Origin: Alphaproteobacteria bacterium
Lineage (GTDB): Bacteria > Pseudomonadota > Alphaproteobacteria > RF32 > CAG-239
Direction of reading: 5' to 3'
NCBI GenBank assembly: GCA_017471705.1
Contig: JAFUSH010000052.1
Coordinates: 14,869 to 78,868 of the forward strand
DNA: 64,000 bases
Below are positions 5,465-44,681 of the stretch, piece by piece. A program made the translations under genes and the position numbers. Within the stretch, counting starts at the first letter, position 1. Each line of letters starts with the position of its first letter. Under the pieces are notes generated by a model, which did no database searches, was not told the origin of the DNA, and worked only from the letters and a program-made list of their open reading frames with translations.

Positions 5465-5480
5465 TTTAAATCTCCTTATC

Positions 5481-5567: not shown

Positions 5568-5597
5568 TTGACACATTGTGCCAATTTGGCATATAAG
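5568..5597 (+). promoter_or_regulatory. Rightward early promoter (PR-like) with operator in the spacer
   Basis: TTGACA (5568-5573), a spacer containing the perfect palindrome TGCCAATTTGGCA (5579-5591), then TATAAG (5592-5597). AATGTGTCAA (5541-5550) is the inverted partner of TTGACACATT (5568-5577). Confidence 0.65.
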
Positions 5598-5620
5598 GGT
5601 TTTCAGGAGGTAAAACCGCA

Positions 5621-5848
5621 ATGATAAAACTTCAAGAATACTTAGACAATAATAAAAAGACGGTAGCCGATCTGGCTCGCGCAATCAATGTGCCGCATTG
5701 TGTGGCTTTGCGGTGGGCAAACGGTGCGCGCATACCGTCAAGAGAGAATATGCAAAAAATCTTTGCATACACGGACGGCCAAGTTGAGCCGAACGATTTT
5801 TATAATATTAACACAGAAGAAGAAAAGGAGCTTAACAGTGTCAACTGA
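5621..5848 (+). CDS. Cro-like HTH regulator (75 aa)
   Basis: HTH TVADLARAINVPHCVALRWANGARIPS. GGAGG RBS. Divergent from the repressor. Confidence 0.7.
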   Translation: MIKLQEYLDNNKKTVADLARAINVPHCVALRWANGARIPSRENMQKIFAYTDGQVEPNDFYNINTEEEKELNSVN

Positions 5849-6125
5849 TAACATTATCAAATACACGCCGGAAGATGTTCAGCGCATTATGGCCGAACGC
5901 GTTAGGGTTAATTACAGATCTGCAACGTTTAAGGCCGGTATGATTGCCGAATATTGCTTTGAATATCCGAACGGCAAAATCCACGCCGATGTTGTGTGTG
6001 CTTTTCCGGTTGATCCGGCAAACGCAGATTATGACAACGGCGTGATTGTTTGTAACAAAAAGATTGAGGCGCAAATTTGGCCTTTAATCGGACAATATTC
6101 ACTTATTACAGGAGAAAAATTGTGA
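5838..6125 (+). CDS. hypothetical protein (95 aa, GTG start)
   Basis: AAGGAG lies 7 nt before the GTG at 5838. The upstream part of ORF 5688-6125 overlaps cro out of frame. Confidence 0.5.
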   Translation: MSTDNIIKYTPEDVQRIMAERVRVNYRSATFKAGMIAEYCFEYPNGKIHADVVCAFPVDPANADYDNGVIVCNKKIEAQIWPLIGQYSLITGEKL

Positions 6126-21444: not shown

Positions 21445-21445
21445 A

Positions 21446-24400: not shown

Positions 24401-27400
24401 GAAAACGCTTTGCGTGACGCTGATAAAATGAGCGGCAATTTGCTTGATTTGCTTGATATGGAGGCAGATATTGACAGCGCAGCAAACAGACGCTTTTTGA
24501 ACGCATTTTTTGCCGAAGTTGTGCCGACGGCCGAACGCAATGCTTATTTGGATAAAGACGATAAGATTACACGCAAAGGTGTTGAGCGCGTTGAAAATGC
24601 TATTGTGGCCAAGTTATTACCTGACGCCAGAATGCTCTCAATCTTGGTGGAAAATCCTGACAATAATATCCGCAAAGTTACAAAAGAGTTAGCAAAGGCT
24701 GCGCCGGCAATTATCTCGTTTGAGAATGATATTGCCGCCGGCCGGATCAATGCTGATTATTCTATTGCCGGTGATGTTACAGGCGCGGTGGATTTACTCA
24801 AACGCGCAAAGGATCGCAATGTTACGGCAGCAGAGTTTATTGCTATGCGTGATATGTTTGAAGAGCCGATTTCCTCAAGCACGCAAAATATGGTGCAACT
24901 CTTTGAAAAATCTACCGGTGCGACTGATTTCCTCAACAAGATCCGCAGCTATATCCGGCAAGCCGGCGAACAAGGCGATATGAGCCAAGATAATATGTTT
25001 GGTATGCAGCCGGTGAGCAAAACGGAATTATTGGATAATTTGGCCAGACAAGAGAGTTTGTTTCAATTCGCCGGTGTGAAAGCACAAACCGCAGCGATGG
25101 ATCAGCTTGAACAAGCCAAGCGGCTTGAGGCTCAAGGTGTTGACGCTGAACAGATCCGGCAGCAAACAGGTTGGTTTAAGGGTGCTGATGGTAAATACAG
25201 ATTTGAAATATCTGATAAAGATCTTAGTATTGGTGAAAAGTATCACAGCGCAAAATGGAGATCAGAACACCTTGTTTATGCAGGTCTTAGTCACAATCTT
25301 GATGGCATTATAAAACACGATAAATTATTTGCCGCATATCCGCATTTACGGAAGTTGCAAGTTGAATTTTCTTTCCAGTTACCGGAGGGTGTTTTAGGTA
25401 ATTATGAAGACAATCGTATTACGCTTTCAAATAAAATGGATCAGTCGCAAACACTTTCAGTTTTAATGCATGAAGTGCAGCACGCAATACAGGAATATGA
25501 GAACTTTGCGCGTGGTGGTAATAGTAACACGATAGCAGAACAAATTGAGTATTATAAAGAAGTTATCCGTCGGTATAATACTTCGGCTGACGCGGTAGAG
25601 CTTGAGAATGCTATCGATAACTATGAATTTATTGGTGACGTTATCAATACAATAGAGGTATCAGAAAAACCTGAAAAAGTCATGAAAAAAGCATGGTATC
25701 GTGAGCATGTATTTGGCACGCCAAGAGGCAAAGCAGCTAAGGCTTTCTTGCAAGAAAAAGCTCAAAACTATATTGACGATTTGCGCGATAAATATAAAGC
25801 CGCTGGCAATGTTGTTTATATGGATTATCTTGATATTCTGCAAAATGGCAACATGAACGATCTGAAAAAGCAATATAAATCTATTCAGGCCAGAATTAAA
25901 CGTTTGCGCGAAAAAGCTTTTCCGAAAGAATATACAGCTGCACATGAGTGGATTGCTCGGTTTGAGGACGGTAAATTGAGTAGCCAAGAGTTATATAAGC
26001 GCTTGGCCGGTGAAATAGAGGCACGCAATACACAAGCACGCCTTAATATGACGGAAGAAGAACGTAAAGCAACGTCACCGGAAAGCACTCAAGATGTGAA
26101 AAATGCTGACGCTATTGTTGTATTTGATGACGGCACGGCGATGGATTATGAGCCTAAAACTCAACGTAAAGGCCATAAAGTGCATAGTGTTTTTGATTTA
26201 AGAGTTGGCGATAAGACGGCAATCGGTGATGTGCAAGAAATTAACGCCGAAAACCGCACAATCAAAATCAATGATAAATTACACTCTATGCTTATGCTTG
26301 ATACGCAGATACAGTATAAAGGCTTAACTGTATATGATAGCCAAGAGCAAAAAGAGGTTGTTGATATGCCGGAAGAACAAACGCCGGCAGATGTTAAAAA
26401 GGCAACCGGTGATCTATCGGTTATAAAGGAACAAAAAAAACATAATACTGAATATAACAAAGCGGCGATAGAATATTTTGGCCTAACAAATAAACTTTCG
26501 GAAACCGGATATATTTTGACTGACGGTAACCTTTTGGATTTGAGCGGCAAAAATTTTGGCGGATCGCCGAATATCAGATCACTTGATCATAGAGATGTGT
26601 TAAAACCTTTAGAGCCGTGGCACGCTAAAATGGAAGAATTTATCAATTCGGGTAATATTCGCTATTTACCAGAGGGGGATAAATTACTTATGAGCAATAT
26701 GCCGACGCCGGCACAGCTCAAGGTTATTGAGCGTATTATTGATAAAACTGGCGGCAATATTACGATTGAGTTAATGGGCGACGCTAACCGTTGGGGAATG
26801 AATAAAAATGATTTCTACAATGAATATACAAACACATCATTTAATCAAGTAAAGCGTGATATAAATGCTTTTTATAAAGGTGATGGTGTGCGTGAAATTA
26901 CGCGGTATTATCAAAAAACACCGGTAACAAACGCCAAAATCGCCAAGCTACAAGAGGGTTTGCAACAGTGGGAAAAGTATCTTGCCGAAGTTGTTGAGCC
27001 GAATAAATACGGTTGGTATGCTGACGCAGTGGAAGATAACCGGAAAAACGCAAAGCGCAAGATTGCTCAATTTAAGAAAGAGATTAAAAAAGAGCAAGAA
27101 AAAGCCGCCGTGCCGGTTGGCGAAAAGTTGTATGCAACGCATAACATGAGTTTGGCCGGTGTTAAAGGCGCATTAAATCTTGGCGGTTTAGCTATGCCAT
27201 CACTTGCTTTACGGAAAGTATCACAAGGGAATATCAATCAATTTGGCGACATTGTTTTTGTGGCTAATGAGAAAATGGTTGAGCCAAGTCGAACAACGGA
27301 TATTTTTGACCGTGACGCATGGACACCAAGCATTGCTAATTCTATGCGCTACGAATTACTGCCAAGCGGTAATACATTTATAAAGAATGTGTTGGCTAAA

Positions 27401-30400
27401 GTCGGCAGAGAAAATGAGCTGTCGGTATTTGTGTATAATATCAGCGACAATCTCGATACGCCAAAAAGTAATGATATGGCACTGGAATTATATGCACTTG
27501 ACAAGGGAATTGAGCTTGATCCTTATGAAACGCTACACAGCCAAGAATATCTTGACTGGTATGATGAAAATATTATGGGTAATTCAGAGCCATATTTATG
27601 GACTGAAAATGCTAGTAATACGGACATGGTGGCCAAGAAATTCACGCTTGATAATATCATGAAGATCTTAAAAAAACAGGAACGCGCAGGCGGCGGCTTT
27701 TTAGGTGATCAGGTTTTCAGCGCAAGAAATTTGCTTAACTTTATGGCTAAAAAATATAAAAATCTTGACGAAGTGCGCAAAGATAAGCACAAACTTGTAT
27801 CTGCCGAAGAGCAAAATGCTTTCTTTCAAAAGATTGATGAGAGATTTTGGGATTTGGCCGCAGAGCTTAAACTTGAAGATCGTGACTATAATTACGGCAG
27901 CGATCGCATGGGGTTGGCTGTTGCGGCTATCAATGCGGACAATGGCGATGATGTTATTAAAAAACGCTTAGCCGGATATTATCTTGACACTTCTGACGCA
28001 GCAGTGGCTAAAGTTAAAGAATTTAGCAATATGATGAAAGAGGTATTAACCGATTATTTTGAGGTTAAACCGCGTCGTGTTGTCAATTTTAGTGAGTTTT
28101 CCGGTGTAATTATACCGGAAGGCAAGGAATATGACGACGTGGCCAAGCAGCTTGAGCAGGAATATATTACGGTTGAGCGCGTTAAAAAAGGTGACACCGC
28201 TGATTATGAGCGCGCTTTAATGAATATCCAAGCGAATGCTGAAACAACGTTTTTCCAAAATCAAAAGATTGATATGGAGGCGTTGGGTGCATATACGCCG
28301 GCAGAGCGCAAGATCACTCTTTTCCGCAACAACAATCTTTCAACGCTTATTCATGAAAGCGGCCACTATTGGCTTGATATGTTGCAGCAATTTGCGCAAC
28401 TGCCGACAGCCAGTGAAAAGCTGAAAAATGATTGGGCAACCGTTAAAAATTGGCTCGGCGTTGGCGACGATAACGTGGTCACAGAAGAGCAGCACGAAAA
28501 ATTTGCGCGCGGCGTTGAAAAGTATTTTTTGACACGTAAAGCACCATCTGCCGGCTTAGCCAAAATATTTGACACTTTCCGGCGGTGGCTCGTTTCGGTG
28601 TATAAAGATGTGAAAGAGCTTGACGTTGATTTGAATGATGATGTTGAGCGCGTTTTTGATCACATGCTCGCAAGTGAAAGTGAGATTGAAGAGTATGCAC
28701 AAGCGCAGCAATTTGCCGACATGATGGAGGCAAGCACCAAAGGCTTAAGCAAAGCAGATCTTGAAAAGTATGCAACGCTTACCGAACAGGCAATGACAAT
28801 GGCCAAGGATAAACACTTGACGGATAAGGTGGCTTTAATCCTGAAAGAAGAAACGGAGGCCTACAAAGAAAAGCAGCAGCAGCTTAAAGATCAGGTTTTG
28901 GAAGAGTGGAGCAAGGATAACACAAACAAAGCTGTTTATATTCTGGTGACAGGCGAAGTGCCGCACGGTCACTTAGATATTAAGATCAATACAGAAGAGC
29001 TGCGCAATTTGCTTGGTGAAAACTTTGATAAATATGCGACTTTTGGCGGCCGGCCGATTTTTGCCGATGACGGCATAAGTTTGACTGATTTGCAGGAATT
29101 TACCGGATTAACAAAAGATCAGGTAAAGGCTGCGCTTTTGACAGCGCGGCAGCGTATGCGTAACTTTAAGCAAGCACTACAACGCCGCACGCATGAGGAG
29201 CTTGGCGATCCGGTAACCTATGATGATGTGCAAAAGCAGGTGATTGCTGCTTATTATAACGATAAGCGCGCGCAACTGTTGGATTTGGATCTGAAAAGTT
29301 TGGCCGGCGATAACGCAAAGCGACAAGCTGTATCTACACAAGGCTTTAAGAAGTGGGCAACCGACACAATCAGCCGGATTGCAATTAAAGACTTAAACCC
29401 TGAACAATACAGCAGAGCCATGCAATTTGCCGGTGATAAGGCGATGGCTGCACTTAATCACGGACAGCGTGACTTAGCTTATAGGTTTAAAATTCAGCAG
29501 ATCCGCAATTTTGTGCTGTTTCGTGAGGCTAAAGACAGACAGGCCGAAGTTGAAAGCACACTGCGCCGGTTGAAGCAGATCGGCAAGCAGGAAGTCAACC
29601 ACGATATTGATCAGGTTTATCAAGACGCCGTGCGCGCACTCTTAAGCCGCTTTACTCTCTCCAGAGCCTTAACGCAAAAGGCAAAAGAACGGCTTGGTAA
29701 TTTGAGCGCATGGATCTTGGAGCAACGCAGCAACGGCTATGATATTGTTGTGCCGGCAGATTTGTTGGAGAAAAACAACGGCACAAGCTATGCAGAGCTG
29801 ACGGTTGATGAATTTCTGACACTTGGTGAAAGCGTCAAAAGTTTGGTCACAAACGGCCGCGCAATCAAACAATTTGAGCTTGAGGGTGAACTGATTGAAA
29901 GATCTAAACTTTTGAATGAGTTTGCCGCGCAACTGCGTAAAACATACAAAGGCCGCGATATTCAACGCACCGGTAAAAAACATTTTAAGGGTATATCTGA
30001 AATGCTTGCACCGGCCGACGCAGCAATCGTGATGTTTGGTGATTTATCTAACCGGATTGACGGCTATGACACAAACGGTGTTTTTCACCGGTTATTCTTA
30101 CGGCCGATGACGGAGAGCCAAAACAGAGAAAATGAACTGCTGCGGCTCTACGGTGGCAAGATGAAAGAGCTGCAAGAGGCATTACCGGAATGGGTAAAAA
30201 AGCAGTTGTTTGAGAATGTGGCGGGCGCAAAAGATGTGCTTGGCGCGGATTATACGCGCGGCGAATTGATAAGCATTGCCTTAAATATGGGTAACTTAAG
30301 CAACCTGCAGCGTTTGCAAGACGGTAATGGATTTTCTGACGAACAGCTTGCATGGGTGGCCGGCACGTTAAGTCAAGAAGAATGGGATTATATTCAAGGT

Positions 30401-31996
30401 GTATGGGACACGCTTGAAAGTATGTATCCTATGCTTGCAGAGCACCATAAAAAAATGAGCGGCTTGGACATGGATCATGTTTTAGCCTCTCCGGTGGTCA
30501 CGCCGTATGGTGTTTATAAAGGCGGTTATTTTCCGTTGTTCTACGACAGATCGGCTGAAATAGAGGCGCGACGCAATAACAGTTTAGAGCAAGCACTGCT
30601 TGAAAGTGATTACGGCCGCGCAACAACAAGCGCCGGATATACAAAACAACGTCAAAACATTGTTAAAGAGGCGGTTAAGTTTGATCTTGGATTGATACAG
30701 CGGCATTTAGCAAGCGCAATTCATGATCTGGCTTGGCGCGGTAATATCCGGCAGATGTGGAATATGGCGAATAATCCTGAATTTATGGCCACAATGGACG
30801 GCTATTTACATGAAAGCTATCGGCAGCAGCTTATGAAGTTAATCAAAGATTTGGCAAACTCTACAAACAGAGAGGCTAGAGAGATGACTTTTGCTGAACG
30901 TATGGCGCGCAACATGCGTGTTGCACGCACCACAATCGGCTTAGGCTTTAGGGTTAAGACTGCGGTTAAGCAGCTCACCGGTTTTGCTCAATCTACGGCT
31001 ATTATGAAACGCTACGGCCATAAAAATAAAGGCAAGCACAGCGGCACATATTGGCTCGTTAAAGGCACAAAGGCTTTCGCAAGCGATAAAGCGACACGTG
31101 AATGGTGCTTGGCAAACAGCGGAGAGCTGCGCACGCGCTTGAATAACATGGACGCAAATATTGCGGAGGCCATGAAAGGTGTTGCCTCAAAGCAATCTAA
31201 ACTGCAGAAGATCGATGAAAGCATTTATAATGCCGCCTTTTGGGCAATCGGCAAGGTTGATGTTTTCACTGCAGAGAGCACTTGGTATGGCGCATATTTG
31301 CAGGCAATCAATGACTTTGGCTATAAACATAAGGACGCGGTATTTTATGCCGACAGAGTTATGATTGAAAGTCAAGGCTCCGGTAACCTGAAAGATAAGC
31401 CGGCTATGCAACGCAAAAACGAATGGGAAAAAATGTTTTTGATGTTTTACTCACCGTTTAGCGGTATGTATGGCTTATGGACTTCGGTCATGCGTGACAT
31501 ACGCGATGGTAAAGAACGCAGCAAAGCACTTGCTGATTTGGCGGTGGCTATGTGTCTGCCGGCTTGGCTTGACGCATTGGTTGACGGTGATCAACCGGAC
31601 GGCGATGATGATTTGGCTGAATGGTTAAAATTCTTCTTGCTGCGGCCGATAATGTTTTGGGCGTCAACAATGCCGATCACGAGAGATTTAGCAAGCTACT
31701 TTGAATTTGGCCGCGCTCAAGGCTTTTTCGGTGATACATTTAAGGCAATAGCAGATCTGCCGAAAGTTATCACAAGCGATAAATGGACAGCCGGCAAGCG
31801 TGTTAATACAGTGATGAACGCAACAGCGCAAATTGCCGGCACGCTCGGATATAATATACCGATCGGAGGACAGCTCGCTGACTGGACGCAATGGCTGACA
31901 GATGTGGCCGCCGGTAATATCAAAATCGAAAGTCCTATGAATGTGATCTGGGGCGTTTGGCGTGGTAAAGACGGCAAGCCGCAAGATAAAAAATAA
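21446..31996 (+). CDS. giant polyvalent internal virion / ejection protein (3516 aa; T7 gp16 slot)
   Basis: Single uninterrupted ORF. ATG at 21446 follows a GGAGAAAATAAA RBS region and the previous stop. Gly-zipper hydrophobic block at ~22189-22340. ParB-like ...NYPQELQPRDRSR...VAVGNGRAMAI at ~23935-24325. Zincin motifs HEVQH (25469-25483) and HESGH (28352-28366). Confidence 0.85.
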   Translation: MGVFDEIKQQEQQSLNTSDQASDQAAAPVLTENVFAPVATDSQTMKDNQIQVFSRDWRQQSDDDMEQHIAAGFIKREDADPVRWKSAIETAKGLGYDEKSYDLIYDDLPEYQKQWKEKELRRYYDNCDTMKNMCITDKNFLNTLDDKTAKDLYDINFNLAVYGQPNEPNAVWAFGQRVAYQTGRSEKSIQTGKLAGNIRGKRGDERAAAIAAWRKEHDQLIRMPEIDTSGYGVEDFVMAAADQLPIMARTTGAVVGGTLAGGAAGAGVGSAVPVVGTAAGGVAGAKAGWVAGNALAAYESYQIEANSMTESLLDITDKDGLPLEDWVVDGASYAYGAIAAAIELVPMKAVTNTIPGMKNITKVGIKQALKEAVKDKTKRQVIMQIIKDYGLAVAGESAEEAAQQFTQAEFTRGAKALMNALYDTSFEQQSFANDLAESAEAAIQAGKATAVMAGASSATRVRPELRTWQRDQEAKQLKRGQEVKAQYDAQRMDEVAEAAQSYMQKPSAERATLKKYMQQAKNSSVYQDIYMSADDARAVMISEAVQKNKAALQESGLYDDIERQIEQADQLGTPVRIAFETFGSEIMASQELYAAFKDVIKTYENGITMQELRVEAEQRQQVRNNIEKAAKDNASDYEYAYQYILEQEVAGGIDQQRRGYTAEMLAKVMTYMAKETKQPINEVMAKYAPSFERSFDGSVGGGQTVQDIISTIRKSAQDKEVQNLMKRAGELGKRDARKIAKILGKHLDNAAAGDVQQFMRVVNAIGDMKLNIEAMTDEDIANSLDSYTKSGDVQLNIKRDDADRVKSGIFSASEKALSDIQANGQDSDYVVVGGGRIPVQYQIVELNNMITSHDDAGAVNENYPQELQPRDRSRSASDTQIASIVNNFAPERVGQAEIATEGAPIVTPEGFVAVGNGRAMAIRQVYKNAEKAQAYKDYLAGKGYDLNGFEQPVLVRRLAIEMNNEQLKALVDDANTAGTMQYSDSENALRDADKMSGNLLDLLDMEADIDSAANRRFLNAFFAEVVPTAERNAYLDKDDKITRKGVERVENAIVAKLLPDARMLSILVENPDNNIRKVTKELAKAAPAIISFENDIAAGRINADYSIAGDVTGAVDLLKRAKDRNVTAAEFIAMRDMFEEPISSSTQNMVQLFEKSTGATDFLNKIRSYIRQAGEQGDMSQDNMFGMQPVSKTELLDNLARQESLFQFAGVKAQTAAMDQLEQAKRLEAQGVDAEQIRQQTGWFKGADGKYRFEISDKDLSIGEKYHSAKWRSEHLVYAGLSHNLDGIIKHDKLFAAYPHLRKLQVEFSFQLPEGVLGNYEDNRITLSNKMDQSQTLSVLMHEVQHAIQEYENFARGGNSNTIAEQIEYYKEVIRRYNTSADAVELENAIDNYEFIGDVINTIEVSEKPEKVMKKAWYREHVFGTPRGKAAKAFLQEKAQNYIDDLRDKYKAAGNVVYMDYLDILQNGNMNDLKKQYKSIQARIKRLREKAFPKEYTAAHEWIARFEDGKLSSQELYKRLAGEIEARNTQARLNMTEEERKATSPESTQDVKNADAIVVFDDGTAMDYEPKTQRKGHKVHSVFDLRVGDKTAIGDVQEINAENRTIKINDKLHSMLMLDTQIQYKGLTVYDSQEQKEVVDMPEEQTPADVKKATGDLSVIKEQKKHNTEYNKAAIEYFGLTNKLSETGYILTDGNLLDLSGKNFGGSPNIRSLDHRDVLKPLEPWHAKMEEFINSGNIRYLPEGDKLLMSNMPTPAQLKVIERIIDKTGGNITIELMGDANRWGMNKNDFYNEYTNTSFNQVKRDINAFYKGDGVREITRYYQKTPVTNAKIAKLQEGLQQWEKYLAEVVEPNKYGWYADAVEDNRKNAKRKIAQFKKEIKKEQEKAAVPVGEKLYATHNMSLAGVKGALNLGGLAMPSLALRKVSQGNINQFGDIVFVANEKMVEPSRTTDIFDRDAWTPSIANSMRYELLPSGNTFIKNVLAKVGRENELSVFVYNISDNLDTPKSNDMALELYALDKGIELDPYETLHSQEYLDWYDENIMGNSEPYLWTENASNTDMVAKKFTLDNIMKILKKQERAGGGFLGDQVFSARNLLNFMAKKYKNLDEVRKDKHKLVSAEEQNAFFQKIDERFWDLAAELKLEDRDYNYGSDRMGLAVAAINADNGDDVIKKRLAGYYLDTSDAAVAKVKEFSNMMKEVLTDYFEVKPRRVVNFSEFSGVIIPEGKEYDDVAKQLEQEYITVERVKKGDTADYERALMNIQANAETTFFQNQKIDMEALGAYTPAERKITLFRNNNLSTLIHESGHYWLDMLQQFAQLPTASEKLKNDWATVKNWLGVGDDNVVTEEQHEKFARGVEKYFLTRKAPSAGLAKIFDTFRRWLVSVYKDVKELDVDLNDDVERVFDHMLASESEIEEYAQAQQFADMMEASTKGLSKADLEKYATLTEQAMTMAKDKHLTDKVALILKEETEAYKEKQQQLKDQVLEEWSKDNTNKAVYILVTGEVPHGHLDIKINTEELRNLLGENFDKYATFGGRPIFADDGISLTDLQEFTGLTKDQVKAALLTARQRMRNFKQALQRRTHEELGDPVTYDDVQKQVIAAYYNDKRAQLLDLDLKSLAGDNAKRQAVSTQGFKKWATDTISRIAIKDLNPEQYSRAMQFAGDKAMAALNHGQRDLAYRFKIQQIRNFVLFREAKDRQAEVESTLRRLKQIGKQEVNHDIDQVYQDAVRALLSRFTLSRALTQKAKERLGNLSAWILEQRSNGYDIVVPADLLEKNNGTSYAELTVDEFLTLGESVKSLVTNGRAIKQFELEGELIERSKLLNEFAAQLRKTYKGRDIQRTGKKHFKGISEMLAPADAAIVMFGDLSNRIDGYDTNGVFHRLFLRPMTESQNRENELLRLYGGKMKELQEALPEWVKKQLFENVAGAKDVLGADYTRGELISIALNMGNLSNLQRLQDGNGFSDEQLAWVAGTLSQEEWDYIQGVWDTLESMYPMLAEHHKKMSGLDMDHVLASPVVTPYGVYKGGYFPLFYDRSAEIEARRNNSLEQALLESDYGRATTSAGYTKQRQNIVKEAVKFDLGLIQRHLASAIHDLAWRGNIRQMWNMANNPEFMATMDGYLHESYRQQLMKLIKDLANSTNREAREMTFAERMARNMRVARTTIGLGFRVKTAVKQLTGFAQSTAIMKRYGHKNKGKHSGTYWLVKGTKAFASDKATREWCLANSGELRTRLNNMDANIAEAMKGVASKQSKLQKIDESIYNAAFWAIGKVDVFTAESTWYGAYLQAINDFGYKHKDAVFYADRVMIESQGSGNLKDKPAMQRKNEWEKMFLMFYSPFSGMYGLWTSVMRDIRDGKERSKALADLAVAMCLPAWLDALVDGDQPDGDDDLAEWLKFFLLRPIMFWASTMPITRDLASYFEFGRAQGFFGDTFKAIADLPKVITSDKWTAGKRVNTVMNATAQIAGTLGYNIPIGGQLADWTQWLTDVAAGNIKIESPMNVIWGVWRGKDGKPQDKK

Positions 31997-32082: not shown

Positions 32083-34764
32083 ATGACTATTCCTGCAAGT
32101 ATGCCGGCAAAGGCCACCTATCTGGGTGATGGGGTAACGGTTAATTTTCCGGTGCCATTTATATATTTTGAAAATACCGACGGAACAAAGCAAATAAAAG
32201 TTATTCTTGCCGATGAAAATGGTGAAAATGAAGTTGTGCAGGTAGAAAATACCGACTTCACAATCACCGACGCCGGCCAAAGTAACGGAACATTAACGAT
32301 GTTAAGCGCGCCGCCGGAAGACTATATTTTAACAATCGCTTATGATATACCGGTTGAACAACTCGTTGATTGGGAGGAGTTCGGTCGCTTACCAAGCGAA
32401 AGTATAGAGGCTGCGGTTGATAAAATAACGGCAATTATAAAACAAATTTATGAAATATTGGGGCGTTGCGTTAAGGTAACAATAAGCGGCAAACAAACCC
32501 CGGAAGAGTTGCTTGCTACAGTTTATGAAAAATTAGACAGTGCAAGTGCGATTGCGGCGCAGGCAATCACTGCTGCTGATAATGCCACAACAGCGGCTAA
32601 CAATGCAACCGCGGCGGTGGCAAGTGCAGAGCAAACGCTTGAAAATGTTACAGCTTATGTTGACGCGGCAGAGGAAGAGATAAGAGAGATTAAAGCCGCA
32701 GCTGAAAGTGAGATTGACACTAAGGTTACAACCGCAAAAGGTGAGATTGACGGTGCAATATCCAGTGCTATTGAGGACGTTGAGGCGGCAGCTATTGCGG
32801 CGGCTCAAGAAGTTATTGACAGTGCGGCTGAAAGCGCAACGGAAACAGCTAAAGCAAATCTTGACACTTATGTTGATGAAACAGTTGAGCCAAGTTTGCA
32901 GTCGTTTGTTGACGCGGCGCAGGCACAAGCCGGTAGTGCGTCATCTTCTGCCTCGTCTGCGGCACAAACTTTAAGCACTATTCAAACAACAGCCGCGCAG
33001 TTTGATACGAATTATACAACAAAACTTTCGGCATTTAATCAGAACGCAACGGATAAGACAACAGCTTTTAACAGCAATGCGTCTGACAAAACAACGGCGT
33101 TTAATGATAATGCGGCGGCTAAACAAGCTCTTATTGACACAAGTGCAACCGCGGCACAAAACGCGGCAAGTGCGGCGGCAACAAGTGAAACAAACAGCGC
33201 AAATTCAGAAGAAAATGCGTATAAATCGGAATTGAAAGCGGCGGCTTATGCTGAACGCGTTAGAAGTGAGGGAATCCCTATGAGCATTATTGAAAACAAA
33301 AAAATTGAAATATCCGGCAATACGGTAAAACTTTACTGGCGCGATCCGCGTGACACGATTATTGACGGCTTTGTCTTATCGTCTTGGAAAAGCACAACGA
33401 TTGTGAAAAAACAAGGTAGTGAGCCGGAAGATATTGACGACGGCGATATTGTCGCAATCGTGACAACGCGCAATCAATACGCAAATACACCGCTTGAAGA
33501 TACACAAGCAAACGCAGAGCAATGGCATTACCGTGCATTTCCTTTATCGGTTAATGGCGTTTATTCGCTTGATAAGCGCAACATTTTCGGCACGGTGCTA
33601 TATGGGTATAGGATAAACAATGTTGATGGTGTGCCGTCATCTAAAGTTGAATATTTGCCATATTGCGATAACTACTTTTATGATCCGTGTGTTATGGATT
33701 TTCTCGGTGATAAATTTAACTGGGGTGACTGGGAAAAAGCCTTTTTTATCCCTAAACCTTGCTTGTTATCAACCGCCGGAACGGTTACATATTACCTTTC
33801 AAAGGATAACTTTAACTATCGTGAGGACGGCGTTACGGCAAGTGATGTGTCCAATTCAGGCGTAAATGGTAATTTTATGTGTGAGTTTCCGTCTATCTTT
33901 GTTAAGGTATGGGAAGAAAAGAACTATATCAACGTGCTTGTATCAAACAAAAAACTTGATGACGATTTTGAATGTTGGGCAACCAAAAAATCTGACGGCA
34001 CTTATGCTGATAACTTTTATTTACCGATGTTTGAGGGAACAAGTATCAATAATGTTATGCGCTCTATTGCCACAAACGGCAAACCTACAGGAAGCTTAAA
34101 CGCAGAAACAGAGGCGACACACGCAACCGCAAACGGCACCGGTTGGAACACAACCACTTGGGCAGATGAAATGCTTATGATGTTGCTGTTTCCGCTGTTG
34201 TTTAAGTCAACAGACAGTCAAACGGTGTTAGGATATGGTGGCTCAAGTTCTTCAAGCGCGCTGACGGTTAATAATAATGCCGCACTTGATAAGGGTTTGA
34301 TGTATGGCACAAGCGCTGGCAGTGCCTATGGTATGACTTATTTAGGCTTACATAACTGGTGGGGGCATAGGTGGCGCCGTCCTAACGGTTTAATGAATGA
34401 TAACGGCAATTATAAATTTAAGCTGACACATAGCACAGTGGACGGCTCAACCGTTACCGGTTATAATCGGAGCGGCAACGGCTATATTTCAAGCGGTGTT
34501 AGACCGCCGGAGGCAAGCGGTAGTTATATCAATTATTATCAGCCTATCGGTAAATTTGGTATAGTGCCAAAGCTGACAAGCGGCTCAAGCACAACACACT
34601 ATTGCGATGGTATGTGGACGAATAACGGACAACTGGATCAGCTTTTTCTCGGTGGCTCTGTTAATTACGGTGCTCTCTGTGGCGTTTTCGCGTTTAATGT
34701 TTACAACCTACCTTCGAACACTTATTGGTACTTCGGCGCGTCGCTCTCTTATCATCACCTTTAA
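32083..34764 (+). CDS. tail fibre / receptor-binding protein with C-terminal DGR variable region
   Basis: N-terminus ATYLGDGVTVNFPVPFIYF is like the T7-type fibre N-domain. An Ala/Thr-rich coiled shaft follows. The C-terminal ...GGSVNYGALCGVFAFNVYNLPSNTYWYFGASL pattern resembles C-type-lectin-fold VR sequences. Occupies the gp17 slot. Confidence 0.85.
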   Translation: MTIPASMPAKATYLGDGVTVNFPVPFIYFENTDGTKQIKVILADENGENEVVQVENTDFTITDAGQSNGTLTMLSAPPEDYILTIAYDIPVEQLVDWEEFGRLPSESIEAAVDKITAIIKQIYEILGRCVKVTISGKQTPEELLATVYEKLDSASAIAAQAITAADNATTAANNATAAVASAEQTLENVTAYVDAAEEEIREIKAAAESEIDTKVTTAKGEIDGAISSAIEDVEAAAIAAAQEVIDSAAESATETAKANLDTYVDETVEPSLQSFVDAAQAQAGSASSSASSAAQTLSTIQTTAAQFDTNYTTKLSAFNQNATDKTTAFNSNASDKTTAFNDNAAAKQALIDTSATAAQNAASAAATSETNSANSEENAYKSELKAAAYAERVRSEGIPMSIIENKKIEISGNTVKLYWRDPRDTIIDGFVLSSWKSTTIVKKQGSEPEDIDDGDIVAIVTTRNQYANTPLEDTQANAEQWHYRAFPLSVNGVYSLDKRNIFGTVLYGYRINNVDGVPSSKVEYLPYCDNYFYDPCVMDFLGDKFNWGDWEKAFFIPKPCLLSTAGTVTYYLSKDNFNYREDGVTASDVSNSGVNGNFMCEFPSIFVKVWEEKNYINVLVSNKKLDDDFECWATKKSDGTYADNFYLPMFEGTSINNVMRSIATNGKPTGSLNAETEATHATANGTGWNTTTWADEMLMMLLFPLLFKSTDSQTVLGYGGSSSSSALTVNNNAALDKGLMYGTSAGSAYGMTYLGLHNWWGHRWRRPNGLMNDNGNYKFKLTHSTVDGSTVTGYNRSGNGYISSGVRPPEASGSYINYYQPIGKFGIVPKLTSGSSTTHYCDGMWTNNGQLDQLFLGGSVNYGALCGVFAFNVYNLPSNTYWYFGASLSYHHL
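33031..33129 (+). repeat. Three tandem 33-nt (11-aa) repeats within the fibre shaft
   Basis: AFNQNATDKTT / AFNSNASDKTT / AFNDNAAAKQA, with synonymous differences between units. Confidence 0.7.
34641..34746 (+). repeat. DGR variable repeat (VR)
   Basis: Ungapped 106-bp alignment to 34929-35034 with 12 mismatches. Eleven of these lie opposite TR adenines. Confidence 0.9.
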
Positions 34765-34773
34765 GGGGGTTGC

Positions 34774-34795
34774 AAAGGGGGATTTCTCCCCCTTT
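34774..34795 (+). promoter_or_regulatory. GC-rich hairpin downstream of VR (DGR target-recognition element candidate)
   Basis: AAAGGGGGA-tttc-TCCCCCTTT, a perfect 9-bp stem with a 4-nt loop, 28 nt after the VR end. No T tract follows. Confidence 0.6.
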
Positions 34796-34928
34796 AGCAT
34801 TAAGCTCGGCGTTAGCCGAATCGTTTAAAATATTATTATGGAGTGCAACGAAAATTTAACCTTTTGTTGTATAAAAGATAAACGGGATTGTGTGGGCGAC
34901 CTGTCGGGCGCTGTTTTTCCCTTTTCGG

Positions 34929-35034
34929 GCTTATTCTCGGTGGCAATGTTAATAACGGTGCTATCTGTGGCGTTTTCGCGTTTAATGTTAACAACCTACC
35001 TACGAACACGAATTGGAACAACGGCGCGTCGCTC
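34929..35034 (+). repeat. DGR template repeat (TR)
   Basis: Adenine-rich invariant copy. In the VR frame it reads LILGGNVNNGAICGVFAFNVNNLPTNTNWNNGASL, with many AAC/AAT codons. Lies 124 nt upstream of the RT gene. Confidence 0.9.
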
Positions 35035-35157
35035 AACCTTATAGGTAAAAGTTCTCTATAATGCCCTATCAATTCCTTGCTAGGTATGGCAAAAATAACG
35101 CTGAAAAAGGCACGGATTAGTAGGTAATCGCTGAATACCCGTGAAGCTATAAGAGAG

Positions 35158-36291
35158 ATGAAAACATACAACGGATTGTTTGAAAAAATTGTTGATGAGA
35201 AAAATATCCAAAAGGCTATATTAAAAGCCTCTCTCGGCAAACGTAAAAAGTCAAGCGTCCGGCGCACGTTATCTCACTTAACCGAAGTGGCGCACGATTT
35301 AAGCGAACAGCTTAAAAATGGAACGTGGCGACCGTTGGATATACACCAAACCACGCAAATAAATGACGGCGTGGAGCTTAAAAAGCGGTATATCGTATGT
35401 CCGAATTTTGCACGTGAGCAATGCGTCCATCACGCTATTATGAATATTTGTGAGCCATTATTCAGAAAAAAGTTTTATAAATATAGTTGCGGCAGTGTCA
35501 AAGGGCGCGGCGGCGACCAAGCAAAGAAGTATATTGCAAAAATTATTAGGAAATATCCGGCGAAAACAAAGTATGTAGCAAAACTTGATATTAAAAAATT
35601 TTTTCATAATGTTAAGCCAAGCTATGTATTTCACGAGATACGCCGAACAATCCGCGATAAAAGAGTGTTGTGGTTGTTTGCTCTTATCCTACGTGCCAAT
35701 AAGCAAATTATTGACGGCGTGACAGTTAAGGGTGGTATTCCTATCGGCTTTTATACAAGTCCTATTTTTGCAAATATTTTACTTAACGCTTTAGATCACT
35801 ACATAAAAGAGGTTTTAGGCGTTGAGTTTTATGTCCGCTATATGGACGATATTGTTATGTTTAGCCCGAATAAGCGCAAACTTAAAAAGGCGTGTCTTGC
35901 AATACAAGGTTATATTGAGGCTCGTAAAATGAAACTCAAACCGACGTGGCAGATACACCGCTTTAGGAGTGTTAATTTTATCGGGTATCAATTCAAACGC
36001 GGTGGGCAAGTCCGGCTTAGAGATAGAGTATTTTTGAAATCTATCCGGCTGATCCGGCGCGTTTCTCGCAAAACAAAGCTGACGATATATGATTGCCTCC
36101 GTGTATTAAGTTATATGGGGCGATTTAAGGCGGCGCATACATACGCCGCATTTAAGTTGCACATTTCGCCGTATGTTAATATCAGGGAATTACGCAAGCG
36201 CGTATCTCGGCACGATAAAAAGTTAAACCAGTTAGAAAAAGAAAGGAAAGCTAATGCAATACAGGAAAGCGGAAAGCCGGCAACAGCCTAA
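35158..36291 (+). CDS. DGR reverse transcriptase
   Basis: RT motifs KRYIVCPNFAREQCVHHAI, SCGSVKGRG, LDIKKFFHNV, GIPIGFYTSPIFANILLNALDHYI and YVRYMDDIVMF (YMDD at 35839-35850). Adjacent to TR/VR. Confidence 0.9.
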   Translation: MKTYNGLFEKIVDEKNIQKAILKASLGKRKKSSVRRTLSHLTEVAHDLSEQLKNGTWRPLDIHQTTQINDGVELKKRYIVCPNFAREQCVHHAIMNICEPLFRKKFYKYSCGSVKGRGGDQAKKYIAKIIRKYPAKTKYVAKLDIKKFFHNVKPSYVFHEIRRTIRDKRVLWLFALILRANKQIIDGVTVKGGIPIGFYTSPIFANILLNALDHYIKEVLGVEFYVRYMDDIVMFSPNKRKLKKACLAIQGYIEARKMKLKPTWQIHRFRSVNFIGYQFKRGGQVRLRDRVFLKSIRLIRRVSRKTKLTIYDCLRVLSYMGRFKAAHTYAAFKLHISPYVNIRELRKRVSRHDKKLNQLEKERKANAIQESGKPATA

Positions 36292-36520
36292 AGAAATTGA
36301 ACAGGCAACCGCCGGACGTTATTATATCCGAAAAAATATCAAAAAAGAAAGCCGCACCGATGAAAAAGGAGCGGCTTTTGATTTATGGGTTTATGATGAG
36401 GCGGTGGCAAGTGAGGCAGAATATGCCGCATACTTGGCAATACAGGGCGCGGAGTTGCGCCGTGAGGCTGAAATCGTGGACGACTACACACTGCAACTTA
36501 TTGAGGAGGGCACACTATGA
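36254..36520 (+). CDS. hypothetical acidic protein (88 aa) preceding the XkdX-like gene
   Basis: ATGA overlap with the next gene. Overlaps the RT 3' end by 38 nt. C-terminus is ...EIVDDYTLQLIEEGTL. Confidence 0.5.
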   Translation: MQYRKAESRQQPKEIEQATAGRYYIRKNIKKESRTDEKGAAFDLWVYDEAVASEAEYAAYLAIQGAELRREAEIVDDYTLQLIEEGTL

Positions 36521-36660
36521 GAGTGATTGTTGAGAGCTTAAAACGTCTTTATGAACAAGGGCGATTAACAAAAGAGCAAGTTATGGAGCGTGTTGAAAAA
36601 GGCACAATTACCATAGACGAATATCATTATATTGTCGGAGATGAAGAACAAGGGGCATAA
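36517..36660 (+). CDS. XkdX-family small phage protein (47 aa)
   Basis: MRVIVESLKRLYEQGRLTKEQVMERVEKGTITIDEYHYIVGDE matches the XkdX pattern (Y..G.xTKEQV...V.KG.IT.EY..I.G). Not in the ORF track (under 60 aa). A hairpin follows at 36649-36669. Confidence 0.65.
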   Translation: MRVIVESLKRLYEQGRLTKEQVMERVEKGTITIDEYHYIVGDEEQGA

Positions 36661-36789
36661 AGCCCCTTGCACTCCGGACGTTTTTGTTTATATGTAGAAA
36701 GATTAAGATTGTAAAACAAAAATAAATATATTATTCTTTAGGTGAGCTTAATGAGTGGGGTCATTGTTTGCTTTTAAGGAATGTAAACA

Positions 36790-38514: not shown

Positions 38515-38722
38515 TATTGAGTTGAAAGACGAAGAACGGCAAAAATGTGAGATTTGGACACGTGTCATGGGTTATCATCGGCCGGTGTCTGAATTTAACA
38601 AAGGCAAGAAGTCTGAATATTACAGCCGCAAGTGTTTTACGGAGGCAAATGCGGTGGCCGGAATTGAAAAAATAGAGGTTCAGGCCTCTTCTGATTGTGG
38701 CTGTTCAATAGCAGCTGAATAG
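38504..38722 (+). CDS. stand-alone NrdD-type glycyl-radical domain protein (72 aa)
   Basis: CEIWTRVMGYHRPVSEFNKGKKSEYYSRKCF matches the C-terminal glycyl-radical segment of class III ribonucleotide reductases (R-x-x-G-Y ... N-x-G-K-x-x-E ... R). Confidence 0.6.
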   Translation: MSDNIELKDEERQKCEIWTRVMGYHRPVSEFNKGKKSEYYSRKCFTEANAVAGIEKIEVQASSDCGCSIAAE

Positions 38723-39933
38723 TCTGGTATGGCGTTGATGGTTTCACTTAAAAGTGGCAGCGGATTTTCTAAACAGTTGACAGCGCTATCAAATTTGTTT
38801 GGCGCAAGGTGCATATATCGCTTAGTCATTTCAAGCGTAGCGTGCCCCATTAGCTCACTGATAGTGTTAATATCAACGCCGTCCATTGCAAGCCATGACG
38901 CAAAAGTATGGCGCAGCGTATGAAAAACAACCTTATTGCGGTCATCAGTAATGTCTTTGTTAAATAATTCATCAACAATGCGTTGATATTGATCTGAAAT
39001 AGTATTTACATGTTCAGATCTGTCTGCTTTCATAAATAGATAATCATTAGGTTTAAGGTCTGCACAGCGGCGTTTGAGCATATCAAAAACAATTTGCGTT
39101 AATGGTAATGCACGATTAACAACCCCTTTAGGATCACGAACATAGAGCCTGCGCGCGGTAAAGTTAATATCTACAGCTTGTAATTTGCATATTTCACCGG
39201 CACGCAAGCCGCAACATAAAGCAAGCAGTGACATATCAAAAACAGTGCTTGTCGGCATTTTACTTAATCTTTCAAATAGTATTGCGGCCTCTTCTCTTGA
39301 TAAAAAACGGATTCGGCGATTATCTATTTTAAGTTTTTTGACTTTTGAGGCCGGATTGTCACCGGCAAAATATTCATTATTTTTAGCCATATTAAATACA
39401 TGGCCGATATAAATTAAAATCTTATTAACGCTTGACGGCGCAAGGCCGGCGGTAATCATATTTGCTTTAATTGTTTCAAGATGTATAGGCTTTATATCCA
39501 CAAGACGCATATCGCCAATCACCGGCAAAATATGGTTATTATGCGCGCCGACTTTCCCCTCTTTAGGTTTATTCTCGTCAATATAGCTAGGTTTGTAAAC
39601 TTCTTCAAAAAATTGCCGGTATGTAATATTTTCTCTTTCTTGAATTGCTGCAGCGGTGGCCTCGGCTTTTTTCTTAGCCTCGGCCATTTCTGCTTTTTCT
39701 TTTAAGCTGAAATAACCGGAGCCGTTTTTAATGTTGTTGCGAATAATTTCTATTTCTGCAGCAGCCTTTGCCTCTGTATATCCGGCACTTTCCCACCCAA
39801 AACCCTCTTCACGCTGCTTGCCGTTGACGGTGTAGCGTAAATAAAAATATCTATCCTTACGGATCTGTCCGTTTTTGCGTGTTGGGTGTTCACGATAATA
39901 AACGCCGCGTATTTTTGTTTTTACTCTATCCAT
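38680..39933 (-). CDS. int: tyrosine integrase
   Basis: C-terminal HTLRHTFASWLAMDGVDINTISELMGHATLEMTKRYMHL (R..H-x-x-R..Y catalytic signature). N-terminal arm-binding-type domain. Adjacent to the tRNA. Confidence 0.9.
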   Translation of the reverse strand: MDRVKTKIRGVYYREHPTRKNGQIRKDRYFYLRYTVNGKQREEGFGWESAGYTEAKAAAEIEIIRNNIKNGSGYFSLKEKAEMAEAKKKAEATAAAIQERENITYRQFFEEVYKPSYIDENKPKEGKVGAHNNHILPVIGDMRLVDIKPIHLETIKANMITAGLAPSSVNKILIYIGHVFNMAKNNEYFAGDNPASKVKKLKIDNRRIRFLSREEAAILFERLSKMPTSTVFDMSLLALCCGLRAGEICKLQAVDINFTARRLYVRDPKGVVNRALPLTQIVFDMLKRRCADLKPNDYLFMKADRSEHVNTISDQYQRIVDELFNKDITDDRNKVVFHTLRHTFASWLAMDGVDINTISELMGHATLEMTKRYMHLAPNKFDSAVNCLENPLPLLSETINAIPDYSAAIEQPQSEEA

Positions 39934-40108: not shown

Positions 40109-40184
40109 GCCGTGGTAGCTCAGTTGGTAGAGCAAACGATTCGTAATCGTTAGGTCGGAAGTTCAAATCTTCTCCACGGCACCA
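40109..40184 (+). tRNA. tRNA-Thr (anticodon CGU)
   Basis: Manual cloverleaf. Acceptor GCCGTGG/CCACGGC, D arm GCTC/GAGC, anticodon arm AACGA-TTCGTAA-TCGTT (CGT at 40142-40144), T arm GGAAG-TTCAAAT-CTTCT, encoded CCA. Confidence 0.85.
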
Positions 40185-44220: not shown

Positions 44221-44681
44221 TTACTCCCTTGCTGTGATGTCTTTTTTGAAATAAATGATGACAGTGCCGGAATTATTACCTTTGGCCGCTCTACCGGTAG
44301 CCGGATCCACAAAGCTAACTCTGCCGGATAAAATCTCGTAAAAGAATTTTTTGTAAATGTATTGATGGAAAGCGCGGCAGTCTGTGCAATTTGAGGGCAA
44401 TACCATGACGACAATGGCACAATCGCCGTTGATGACTTCATCATAAGCTTTGGCGATAAAAGCGGCTTTTTGGCTGAATGGTGGATTACAAAAGACACGT
44501 TCCCCCCCCCCCATGAGGTTTGCAGGGCGTTAATACCCTGATCAAAATACAAGCCGCGTGGTGCTTTGCAGTTGGCGGTGGTGCAAGCAGCGTCAAGTGT
44601 GAAATTAAAAACACGATCAAGCTGCCGATAAAGAAAATCCGGTGTTTCAAAGCCGTCGTTACCTTTAACATTCATCTTCAT
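44221..44681 (-). pseudogene. Dam-family N6-adenine methyltransferase with poly-G(11) tract (OFF state, different wrong frame)
   Basis: C run 44502-44512 has 11 residues. The N-terminal frame continues as ...SWGGGNVSFVIHH... (158-aa ORF). The catalytic half GGGERVFCNPPFS lies in another frame. Confidence 0.8.

Follow-up and report, generated by a model that had tools for sequence, protein, structure and literature searches.

A stretch of 64,000 nucleotides from an Alphaproteobacteria bacterium (RF32; CAG-239; assembly GCA_017471705.1, contig JAFUSH010000052.1, positions 14,869–78,868, forward strand), referred to here as the window, contains a phage genome with a diversity-generating retroelement (DGR) directed at the phage's tail fibre. 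The DGR is bona fide and recently active, and it acts on the tip of the fibre. It comprises a variable repeat (VR) at the 3′ end of the fibre gene, a template repeat (TR), a structured spacer RNA and a reverse transcriptase (RT), in this order, and we consider it very probable that the locus is a functional DGR of the accessory-less kind. The DGR reading had been put forward in an earlier note made from the sequence alone, and it is supported by the adenine-specific divergence of the VR from the TR, a TR rich in AAY codons, an adjacent RT with intact motifs and a predicted lectin fold of the target.

DGRs on phage receptor-binding proteins have been known since the Bordetella phage BPP-1 and are abundant in gut viromes. 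The existence of one here is unsurprising, and an accessory-less architecture has already been described. The value of the locus lies in its being an unusually clean natural example: phages from independent samples that are nearly the same elsewhere share one TR but have scrambled VRs, and an RT-deleted sister lineage provides a negative control. What the locus adds, in small increments, is an RNA resembling the "cPRT Stop" of BPP-1 in a DGR without the accessory protein Avd, the assignment of the RNA motif RT-18 to a DGR, a natural IGxxxSP RT, which is the counterpart of the engineered Q187P variant of the BPP-1 enzyme (bRT), and the RT-deleted sister lineage itself. The parts of the element are as follows, in window coordinates.

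32083–34764, forward strand: target gene, encoding an 893-aa tail fibre or receptor-binding protein (open reading frame, ORF; PHROG tail proteins)
34641–34746, forward strand: VR, fibre codons 854–888 of 893, ending 18 nt before the stop codon
34735–34746, forward strand: GC-rich 3′ end of the VR, GGCGCGTCGCTC, identical in the TR (35023–35034) and kept in relatives
34771–34799, forward strand: GC-rich hairpin/cruciform, 24 nt past the VR and after the fibre stop codon; 9-bp core AAAGGGGGA/TCCCCCTTT, GC clamp, loop TTTC
34883–34897, forward strand: 5′ strand of a predicted long-range helix (C-GGGAUUG...GGGC; RNAalifold), 31–46 nt upstream of the TR
34929–35034, forward strand: TR, non-coding, with 25 adenines; 10 AAY, 2 ATY and 2 ACG codons in the VR frame
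35039–35061, forward strand: putative self-priming hairpin (UUAUAGG / UCUAUAA), directly 3′ of the TR
35063–35077, forward strand: 3′ strand of the predicted long-range helix (GCCC...CAAUUCC-U), in the TR–RT spacer
35078–35157, forward strand: RT-18 spacer RNA (RF03021; cmscan 41.8 bits)
35158–36291, forward strand: RT, 377 aa, YMDD, motif 4 IPIGFYTSP, pI 10.4 (RVT_1, PHROG 1423)

The repeat pair and its adenine-specific divergence

The VR and the TR align without gaps over 106 nt at an offset of 288, with 12 mismatches. Eleven of these fall at TR adenines (34933, 34945, 34946, 34954, 34963, 34990, 35002, 35011, 35017, 35020 and 35021), nine being A-to-T and two A-to-C changes. Adenines occupy 25 of the 106 TR positions, and the probability that at least 11 of 12 mismatches would fall on them by chance is 1.7e-7 (hypergeometric). 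The twelfth mismatch, TR G35010 against VR T34722, is synonymous (ACG/ACT). An independent repeat search recovers the same pair (89%), and the similarity ends at both boundaries. The VR–TR gap measures 182 nt (34747–34928), of which 164 nt lie between the fibre stop codon and the TR, and no ORF lies inside it. BLAST of the TR against the 42-kb phage genome found no second TR-like copy and no remote second target. The earlier note had given the same repeat coordinates, the same 12 mismatches with the 11 adenine sites and their base changes, the synonymous twelfth site and the peptide translations of both repeats, all of which were reproduced; its counts of 25 TR adenines and of 11 of 12 mismatches at adenines, and thus the adenine bias, held on recounting.

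The TR is also built in a way that suits mutagenesis at adenines. The richness in AAC and AAT codons remarked upon in the earlier note is borne out by the 10 AAY codons, and the TR adenines are distributed 14/10/1 over the three codon positions of the VR frame, so 24 of 25 stand at positions 1–2. Because of this placement in AAY, ATY and ACG codons, A-to-N changes cannot create a stop codon under the genetic code, and about 15^10 × 4^4 = 1.5e14 peptides are accessible. A bias towards A-to-T changes (9 of 11 in the window), which would have resembled the dATP bias of bRT Q187P, was considered and dropped: when six loci of the clade are taken together, the new bases are T 26, C 23 and G 21.

Activity in related loci

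Related loci, designated here by L numbers, were fetched with the RT as query and via neighbouring proteins. Over the eight loci with an intact RT (the window, L080, L007, L008, L009, L083, L162 and L164), TR adenines account for 89 of the 91 VR/TR mismatches. The locus L080 derives from a different metagenome and a different assembly in the European Nucleotide Archive (ENA), and it matches the window at 98.8% identity over 2,600 nt. Between the two there are 31 differences, of which 18 belong to the VR of 106 nt (odds ratio 39, P = 3e-18). Seventeen of the 18 are templated by adenines, and the remaining one is at the G35010 site, where L080 carries the TR base. Elsewhere the two are 99.5% identical, their TRs are identical, and over the last 494 residues their fibres differ only at adenine-templated VR codons. 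With 17 A-site differences in the VR at 99.5% identity, the activity is very recent relative to the divergence of the genomes, and the past activity claimed in the earlier note is thereby borne out. In L082 the RT is 100% identical to that of the window and the TR is identical too, which, with the independent contig L080 and the window, makes three independent samples in which the TR is 100% identical.

A sister lineage represented by L166 (positions 5345–5960) and L167 (GCA_948480655.1 / GCA_949113775.1) has lost about 1 kb from within the RT gene, and the first 37 and last ~15 RT codons remain. In this RT-deleted lineage the adenine bias is lost: in L166, 8 of 21 VR/TR mismatches are at A. 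Its "TR" keeps 12 A, about half having been lost; in both loci most AAY codons are gone, and the "TR" appears itself to have been A-mutagenised or converted by the VR. These loci are a decaying DGR and a natural negative control for the adenine bias. The lineage is common (its 89-aa protein is indexed in 78 blocks), and its fibre, hairpin, TR flanks and RT-18 RNA are still present.

Several irregularities were seen among the related contigs. The metagenome contigs L001, L002 and L086 end inside or just after the VR. In L082 (2752–2857; ERZ842401 NODE_12245) the fibre body joins a TR-identical segment of 106 nt, followed by spacer and RT, with the equivalent of 34747–34928 omitted; this junction is either an assembly collapse of the VR onto the TR at 3x coverage or a real VR–TR recombination, and the latter, if real, would delete the last codons of the fibre together with the hairpin. 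Contig breaks at the VR and VR–TR collapse match the behaviour of assemblers at a heterogeneous repeat, and are suggestive only. L080 (positions 328–330) is missing 40 nt of the fibre shaft (window 32956–32995), a frame shift that may be a low-coverage error. The TRs of L008 (9771–9876) and L083 (3278–3383) have TCT or GCT instead of the sixth-codon AAT of the others and share further non-A differences with their own VRs; the TR itself thus appears to evolve, perhaps by occasional VR-to-TR conversion.

The tail-fibre target and its fold

The fibre gene directly follows T7 gp14/gp16-like internal virion genes, a position that it shares with the fibre gene of T7. In the fibre, an Ala-rich shaft joins an N-terminal domain for tail attachment to a C-terminal domain (~500–893) with a predicted C-type-lectin fold. 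The protein matches PHROG 5302 (1.7e-68, residues 409–892) and PHROG 1640 (6e-23, residues 9–128). No Pfam family matched the C-terminal domain. A C-type-lectin fold at the fibre C-terminus had been expected in the earlier note, and an AlphaFold model of residues 500–893 (394 aa, 51-sequence alignment; pLDDT 96.1, pTM 0.94) predicts it. In a Foldseek search against the PDB the top match was the DGR variable protein TaqVP (5vf4, E 2.5e-13, probability 1.0), followed by its BPP-1 equivalent Mtd (1yu0–4; five variants, E 1e-4 to 1e-3) and then by PvdO, EgtB and TvpA. All of the top matches share the C-type-lectin (CLec) / FGE-type fold, and one homologue of the fibre had already been labelled "PvdO" by structure-based annotation.

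TaqVP (5VF4) is the best structural match, and the VR lies at the extreme C-terminus as it does in TaqVP and other CLec/FGE-type variable proteins. The two differ in that their sequence identity is 14–15%, with a TM-score of ~0.47 over the whole two-domain model, and in that the window phage carries the domain on a fibre shaft. Altogether the model supports an assignment of the fibre C-terminus as a C-type-lectin-fold DGR variable protein, and together with the tail-protein match of the N-terminus and the position of the gene it supports placing the VR on the receptor-binding tip of the fibre. Tropism switching, the function expected in the earlier note, is suggested by the position and the fold of the target.

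The reverse transcriptase

As described in the earlier note, an RT with a YMDD motif at 35158–36291 follows the TR; its start lies 123 nt past the TR end (spacer 35035–35157), not 124 nt as had been stated. The enzyme is full length and has all catalytic residues. It matches Pfam RVT_1 (1e-21) and PHROG 1423 (3.3e-85), and among PDB sequences the GsI-IIC RT (1e-18) and BPP-1 bRT (8ub7, 5e-16, aligned over residues 4–280). In bRT, the fingertip arginine R74 and the hydrophobic residue I181, which stands where other RTs have the Gln of QGxxxSP, promote adenine mutagenesis (PMC7826257). The equivalents of both are conserved in the window RT (KKRYIV against KPRLI in bRT, and IPIGFYTSP against IPIGSLTSQ).

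Predicted RNA structure around the template repeat

RNAalifold, applied to the whole TR region, predicts a long-range helix that pairs 34883–34897, upstream of the TR, with 35063–35077 in the spacer. Over seven relatives, helices 1 and 2 of this pairing are 92% and 100% paired, three pairs are changed on both sides, and the compensatory changes comprise AU<->GC (3 vs 3) and GC->AU. When the long-range helix is combined with the three helices of RT-18 into a five-helix structure of 27 pairs, 95.7% of the positions are paired in the seven relatives and both partners have changed in 7 of the 27 pairs, with compensatory changes in all three RT-18 helices; none of 500 column shuffles reaches the observed pairing or covariation, and slid controls are 36–50% paired. 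An equivalent duplex of different sequence occurs in L162 and in the Butyrivibrio phage Idris.

The RT-18 match that lies between TR and RT scores 41.8 bits against a gathering threshold of 41.3 (E 3.8e-6) and is thus only just above threshold. The motif is also found directly upstream of the RT in L001, L002, L007, L008 and L009 (41.8–47.9 bits). It consists of a stem-loop (35078–35091), a run of adenines (35092–35099, AAAAAUAA) and a long interrupted stem-loop that extends to the ribosome-binding site of the RT. Weinberg et al. (2017) placed only RT-10 in a DGR, that of BPP-1, and speculated that the other RT motifs belonged to retrons or DGRs (PMC5737381). In the present locus RT-18 is flanked by a verified TR on one side and the associated RT on the other, which assigns this orphan Rfam motif to a DGR.

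The order of elements along the RNA (primer-side segment, 1-nt linker, duplex strand, stem-loop 35078–35091, A-run 35092–35099, single-stranded stretch, long interrupted stem-loop) can be set beside the cryo-electron microscopy (cryo-EM) structure of the BPP-1 ribonucleoprotein. There a primer strand (Sp47–56) is followed by the avd:Sp "cPRT Stop" duplex (Sp59–70) and a stem-loop (Sp71–78), and then by A-minor adenosines (Sp79–81), the thumb ring and a bRT-binding stem-loop (bioRxiv 10.1101/2023.10.23.563531). By this analogy we propose that the long-range helix is the counterpart of the "cPRT Stop" duplex, the published survey of which covered only Avd-containing DGRs (bioRxiv 10.1101/2023.10.23.563531). 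Because 28 nt separate the TR from the duplex strand here, against 58 nt in BPP-1, there appears to be no room for the Avd-binding stem-loop Sp3–33 (~31 nt), to which the missing length would correspond. The hairpin at 35039–35061 may, more speculatively, be a self-priming hairpin, by positional analogy with the same work (bioRxiv 10.1101/2023.10.23.563531); its strands are nearly invariant in the seven relatives and show no covariation, and five of the seven have an A.A mismatch.

A further pairing was noticed between UUCUCU (35052–35057), just past the TR, and AGAGAG (35152–35157), the ribosome-binding site of the RT, with compensatory changes at 2 of 6 pairs in six relatives. As this helix crosses the long-range helix, it would form either a pseudoknot or an alternative fold, and it might link the folding of the RNA with translation of the RT.

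Candidate target-site elements downstream of the variable repeat

VR/TR homology stops abruptly past GGCGCGTCGCTC. This GC-rich segment likely corresponds to the (GC)14 core in the initiation of mutagenic homing (IMH) site of BPP-1, at which cDNA integration is thought to start (PMC3240598). BPP-1-type target sites also have a GC-rich inverted repeat 4–34 bp past the VR, with a 7–10-bp stem and a 4-nt GRNA loop, the cruciform of which is needed for retrohoming (PMC3240598). At the corresponding place in the window lies the hairpin 34771–34799; the DNA fold of 34735–34830 has an energy of −20.1 kcal/mol (z = −4.1), and a GGGGGA-loop-TCCCCC stem is found in the same place in L001, L002, L007, L008, L009, L083, L162, L164 and L166, that is, in ten loci with the window. 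The loops vary among the loci (TTTC in the window, GAAA, GCAA, TTTT or 5 nt). By comparison with BPP-1 the hairpin is a candidate target-recognition structure, and it could equally or additionally be a terminator of the fibre gene.

A second, small hairpin lies 10 nt past the first (34808–34826, CUCGGC-GUUA-GCCGA). It recurs with loop changes in L008, L083 and L166, is absent in L001, L002, L007 and L009, and may be where transcription of the fibre gene actually terminates.

Proposed mechanism and competing explanations

Taking these elements together, we propose that a transcript over the TR and its flanks would fold so that the helix 34883–34897 / 35063–35077 brackets the TR, while the downstream RT-18 RNA would bind the RT. 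cDNA synthesis on the TR by the RT would be faithful at every template base but adenine, opposite which any nucleotide may be inserted, and this cDNA would replace the VR at the 3′ end of the fibre gene, guided by the shared GC-rich end and the GC-rich hairpin past the stop codon. In this manner 14 codons of the C-type-lectin receptor-binding tip could be rewritten without stop codons, with ~1.5e14 possible protein variants, and the phage would sample new receptor specificities. The parts of this scheme that we infer are the cDNA as intermediate, the site at which it is primed, what helix and hairpin do, the independence from Avd and the switching of receptors.

Several points weigh against the reading as a functional accessory-less DGR. 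No avd or other accessory gene was found, though Avd is essential in the only DGR that has been dissected biochemically. The RT does not have the terminal Gln of the signature [I/V/L]GxxxSQ and reads IGFYTSP; the TTTC loop of the hairpin departs from the 5′-GRNA consensus on the sense strand, though stem and position fit; and the VR mismatch T34722 is not at an adenine. As to the RNA, the single-sequence fold of the TR RNA (34900–35165) is no stabler than shuffles (z = +0.67), RNAduplex gave no significant energies for pairing of the TR flanks (z −2.5 to +1.2), and the proposed model draws on conservation and covariation in seven fairly close relatives rather than on thermodynamics. A sigma-70 promoter/terminator scan of 34600–36700 found no promoter for a TR transcript, giving no more hits than shuffles, and was uninformative. 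Finally, activity in the window genome is read indirectly, from its relatives and its own VR/TR divergence. For the missing Gln, IGxxxSP is found in 11 of 156 retrieved DGR-like RTs, namely that of the window and those of its 10 closest relatives, and the other 145 end in SQ. The motif is not disqualifying, because bRT Q187P leaves the frequency of adenine misincorporation unchanged (PMC7826257) and the adenine specificity of VR/TR mismatches is intact across the SP clade. The strict A-specificity of this clade fits as a natural confirmation of the Q187P result; the terminal Gln is a common signature, not a functional requirement.

Could the RT instead come from a different kind of retroelement or from a defence system (a group II intron, a retron or Abi/DRT), with the repeat pair an unrelated duplication? 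Its best PDB sequence match, GsI-IIC, is slightly ahead of bRT, and its best NCBIfam match is a group II RT/maturase model, yet all NCBIfam scores are far below the cut-offs (group II TIGR04416 105.6 bits vs 300, retron St85 62.5 vs 235, Drt3a 60.6 vs 200, AbiA 24 vs 250). Moreover, Rfam at E <= 1 gave no group II intron or retron RNA in 34000–36500, the only matches there being RT-18 and a weak RT-4, and an adenine bias of 89 in 91, gone where the RT is deleted, cannot come from ordinary duplication and drift. We regard this explanation as practically negligible. Very unlikely, too, is that the window DGR is a recent fossil, its VR/TR differences recording the past activity of an element now dead. 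Such a state would be compatible with the indirect nature of the evidence for activity in the window and with T34722, which could be ordinary drift after the last homing, and decay does occur in the lineage, as the deleted RT and eroded TR of L166/L167 illustrate. The window RT, however, is intact in its catalytic residues and recurs unchanged in L082, the TR keeps all 25 adenines in three independent samples, the hairpin and RNA elements are intact, and the VR differs at 17 A-sites from that of an otherwise nearly identical genome.

A more substantial question is posed by the accessory protein. The DGR may need one after all, supplied in trans by an unrecognised phage- or host-encoded Avd-like or nucleic-acid-binding factor; we find this rather doubtful, though by no means negligible. 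Avd is essential for BPP-1 cDNA synthesis (bioRxiv 10.1101/2023.10.23.563531), its sequences are very poorly conserved (PMC5758913), so that profile searches could miss one, and the host genome lies outside the window. An acidic 88-aa ORF, moreover, overlaps the RT stop codon and travels with the RT in several types of phage. Against such a factor, scans with Pfam and NCBIfam that covered nearly every ORF in the 42-kb genome (39 small ORFs and the cassette neighbours included) found no match to Avd or its four-helix bundle, nor did Pfam among the called cassette-flanking genes in L162–L165, and the short TR-to-duplex distance seems to leave no space for the ~31-nt Avd-binding stem-loop. In the survey of 372 DGRs by Wu et al. 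(2018), 29% were of architecture A, which has no accessory gene, with no avd elsewhere in those genomes, and Avd-independent retrohoming was proposed (PMC5758913). The 88-aa protein, for its part, is unlike Avd in charge and is kept where the RT is lost. The two small genes behind the RT are the following.

36254–36520, forward strand: acidic 88-aa ORF, overlapping the RT stop codon by 38 nt; pI 4.8
36517–36660, forward strand: XkdX-like 47-aa ORF, following the 88-aa ORF

No family beyond PHROG 20201 was found for the 88-aa ORF. It accompanies the RT in podovirus-type, myovirus-type and serine-recombinase phages, and it has remained intact and unchanged in the lineage with the deleted RT. As a new accessory factor it is an unlikely candidate, given its pI of 4.8 against ~9.5 for Avd, its pairing with an XkdX-like gene as in fibre/lysis modules, and its retention without the RT. 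The 88-aa and XkdX-like pair goes with the cassette into the prophages L162 (myovirus-type, with sheath initiator and baseplate J) and L164 (serine-recombinase). Because the pair travels in this way, the whole fibre-tip/DGR/XkdX block behaves as a mobile module.

Comparison with known systems

The earlier note had likened the layout to that of BPP-1. The parallel holds for the function of VR, TR and RT and for the fold of the target; it does not hold for gene order, since BPP-1 has mtd–avd–TR–brt and no avd lies between VR and TR or elsewhere in the window genome, so that the layout is architecture A1. The target–TR–RT order comes without avd and without HRDC or MutS-like (MSL) domains, neither of which was reported in Pfam scans of the genome ORFs, as is characteristic of A1. 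For CH1, which has no public model and was judged by size only, no acidic ORF of 160–169 aa adjoins the cassette.

Both the window phage and BPP-1 are temperate short-tailed phages of ~42 kb, with the VR in the last ~35–45 codons of a C-type-lectin-fold fibre receptor-binding protein (the fold being predicted for the window). In both, an AAY-rich TR lies upstream of the RT, mutagenesis is A-to-N, the VR/TR 3′ end is GC-rich and a GC-rich hairpin stands past the VR. The spacers of both are structured: a helix pairs the TR-upstream flank to the spacer, and a short stem-loop and an adenosine run come after it. They differ in avd (~128 aa, basic, four-helix bundle), present in BPP-1 and not found in the window genome; in the RT, where BPP-1 has IGxxxSQ and the window IGxxxSP, with low identity overall (E 5e-16); in the spacer motif, RT-10 in BPP-1 and RT-18 here; in the hairpin loop, GRNA against TTTC; and in the fibre, which has no detectable sequence similarity to Mtd. 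With architecture A1 (PMC5758913) the locus shares the target(VR)–TR–RT order without an accessory gene. The Avd-less lineage 3A of that survey is confined to Bacteroides and relatives, whereas close relatives of the window phage occur in metagenome-assembled genomes (MAGs) labelled Alphaproteobacteria or proteobacterium.

The closest cultured phages are the Butyrivibrio phages Idris and Arawn (Arawnvirus), with an RT 35% and a target C-terminus 33% identical to those of the window. They likewise have a tail protein with a C-terminal VR, a 111-nt TR, a structured spacer, an RT, a small ORF and an XkdX-like ORF, although their records annotate neither the repeats nor a DGR. In Idris all 17 of 17 VR/TR mismatches are at adenines, and a helix equivalent to that between upstream flank and spacer is present. 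The differences are that these are 31-kb phages of a Firmicutes host with another virion module, that their RT motif is LGxxxSQ, and that their spacer resembles RT-4 (49 bits, below threshold) and not RT-18.

The locus is a concrete and testable candidate for an Avd-independent DGR, with the duplex, stem-loop and A-run arrangement present without Avd. We put it at slightly under an even chance that the clade represents a natural minimal two-component DGR, made of RT and structured RNA without Avd, in which the TR-bracketing helix and RT-18 would do the positioning otherwise done by Avd and adenine mutagenesis would remain strict despite IGxxxSP. If this were true, the RNA-guided initiation and stop mechanism seen in the BPP-1 cryo-EM structure would predate or outlive Avd, and the cassette, which passes between phages of podovirus, myovirus and other types, would offer a compact platform for targeted diversification in vivo. 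Should RT and RNA alone suffice, the ~1.5-kb cassette would be attractive for engineered targeted mutagenesis.

The phage genome and its lifestyle

The window holds 1.5 head-to-tail copies of a 42,130-bp unit (1–21870 vs 42131–64000), which agrees with the genome size of ~42 kb given in the earlier note. The copies are identical save for a poly-C tract, C10 at 2371–2380 and C11 at 44501–44511, so the record is a concatemer or over-assembled circular genome. The virion genes encode a large terminase, a portal of the T7 type, a tail tube and internal virion proteins (gp14-like and others), with matches to T7_gp14, VirionAssem_T7 and the portal and tail-tube PHROGs. The 893-aa fibre is followed by the RT, the 88-aa ORF, the XkdX-like ORF and an endolysin/spanin block. 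Further features of the genome are listed below.

21425–31996, forward strand: apparent polyvalent protein of 3,523 aa at the T7 gp16 position, with ddrB-ParB, LPD23 and PBECR5 domains
38680–39933, reverse strand: tyrosine integrase, adjoining tRNA-Thr
40109–40184, forward strand: complete tRNA-Thr(CGT), adjacent to the integrase

The region of the integrase and tRNA-Thr(CGT) is likely the attachment-site region, and the genome also encodes repressor-type helix-turn-helix (HTH)/LexA-like proteins. The description of the phage as temperate gains support from the integrase and from the close relatives L007, L008 and L083, which are embedded in bacterial contigs of 78–201 kb. "T7-like", as it had also been called, is right for the virion module but not in the sense of the Autographiviridae, in view of the integrase, the HTH/LexA-like repressors and the absence of a match to a single-subunit RNA polymerase in family scans of the genome ORFs. 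It is justified to describe the phage as temperate with a T7-like virion module and not as a T7 relative of the Autographiviridae type. No match to the 4.2-kb cassette was obtained by megablast among 50,697 phage records, where relatives are detectable at the protein level only. The MAGs that contain close relatives are labelled as gut Alphaproteobacteria or proteobacterium, and one short contig was binned as Bacteroidales.

Two further genes of the phage deserve mention. The C10/C11 tract, a G-tract on the coding strand, lies inside a Dam-like N6-adenine methyltransferase gene that is split at either length into a 149-aa ORF (Dam profile positions 60–146) and a 158-aa ORF (positions 7–62), while a tract of 9 or 12 would yield the full-length protein; the tract reflects either phase variation through strand slippage or an error of long-read sequencing at the homopolymer. 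In the 3,523-aa protein, the PBECR5 domain is a barnase/EndoU/RelE-like nuclease and two HExxH-like motifs are also present; the protein resembles a "polyvalent protein" and is probably injected along with the DNA.

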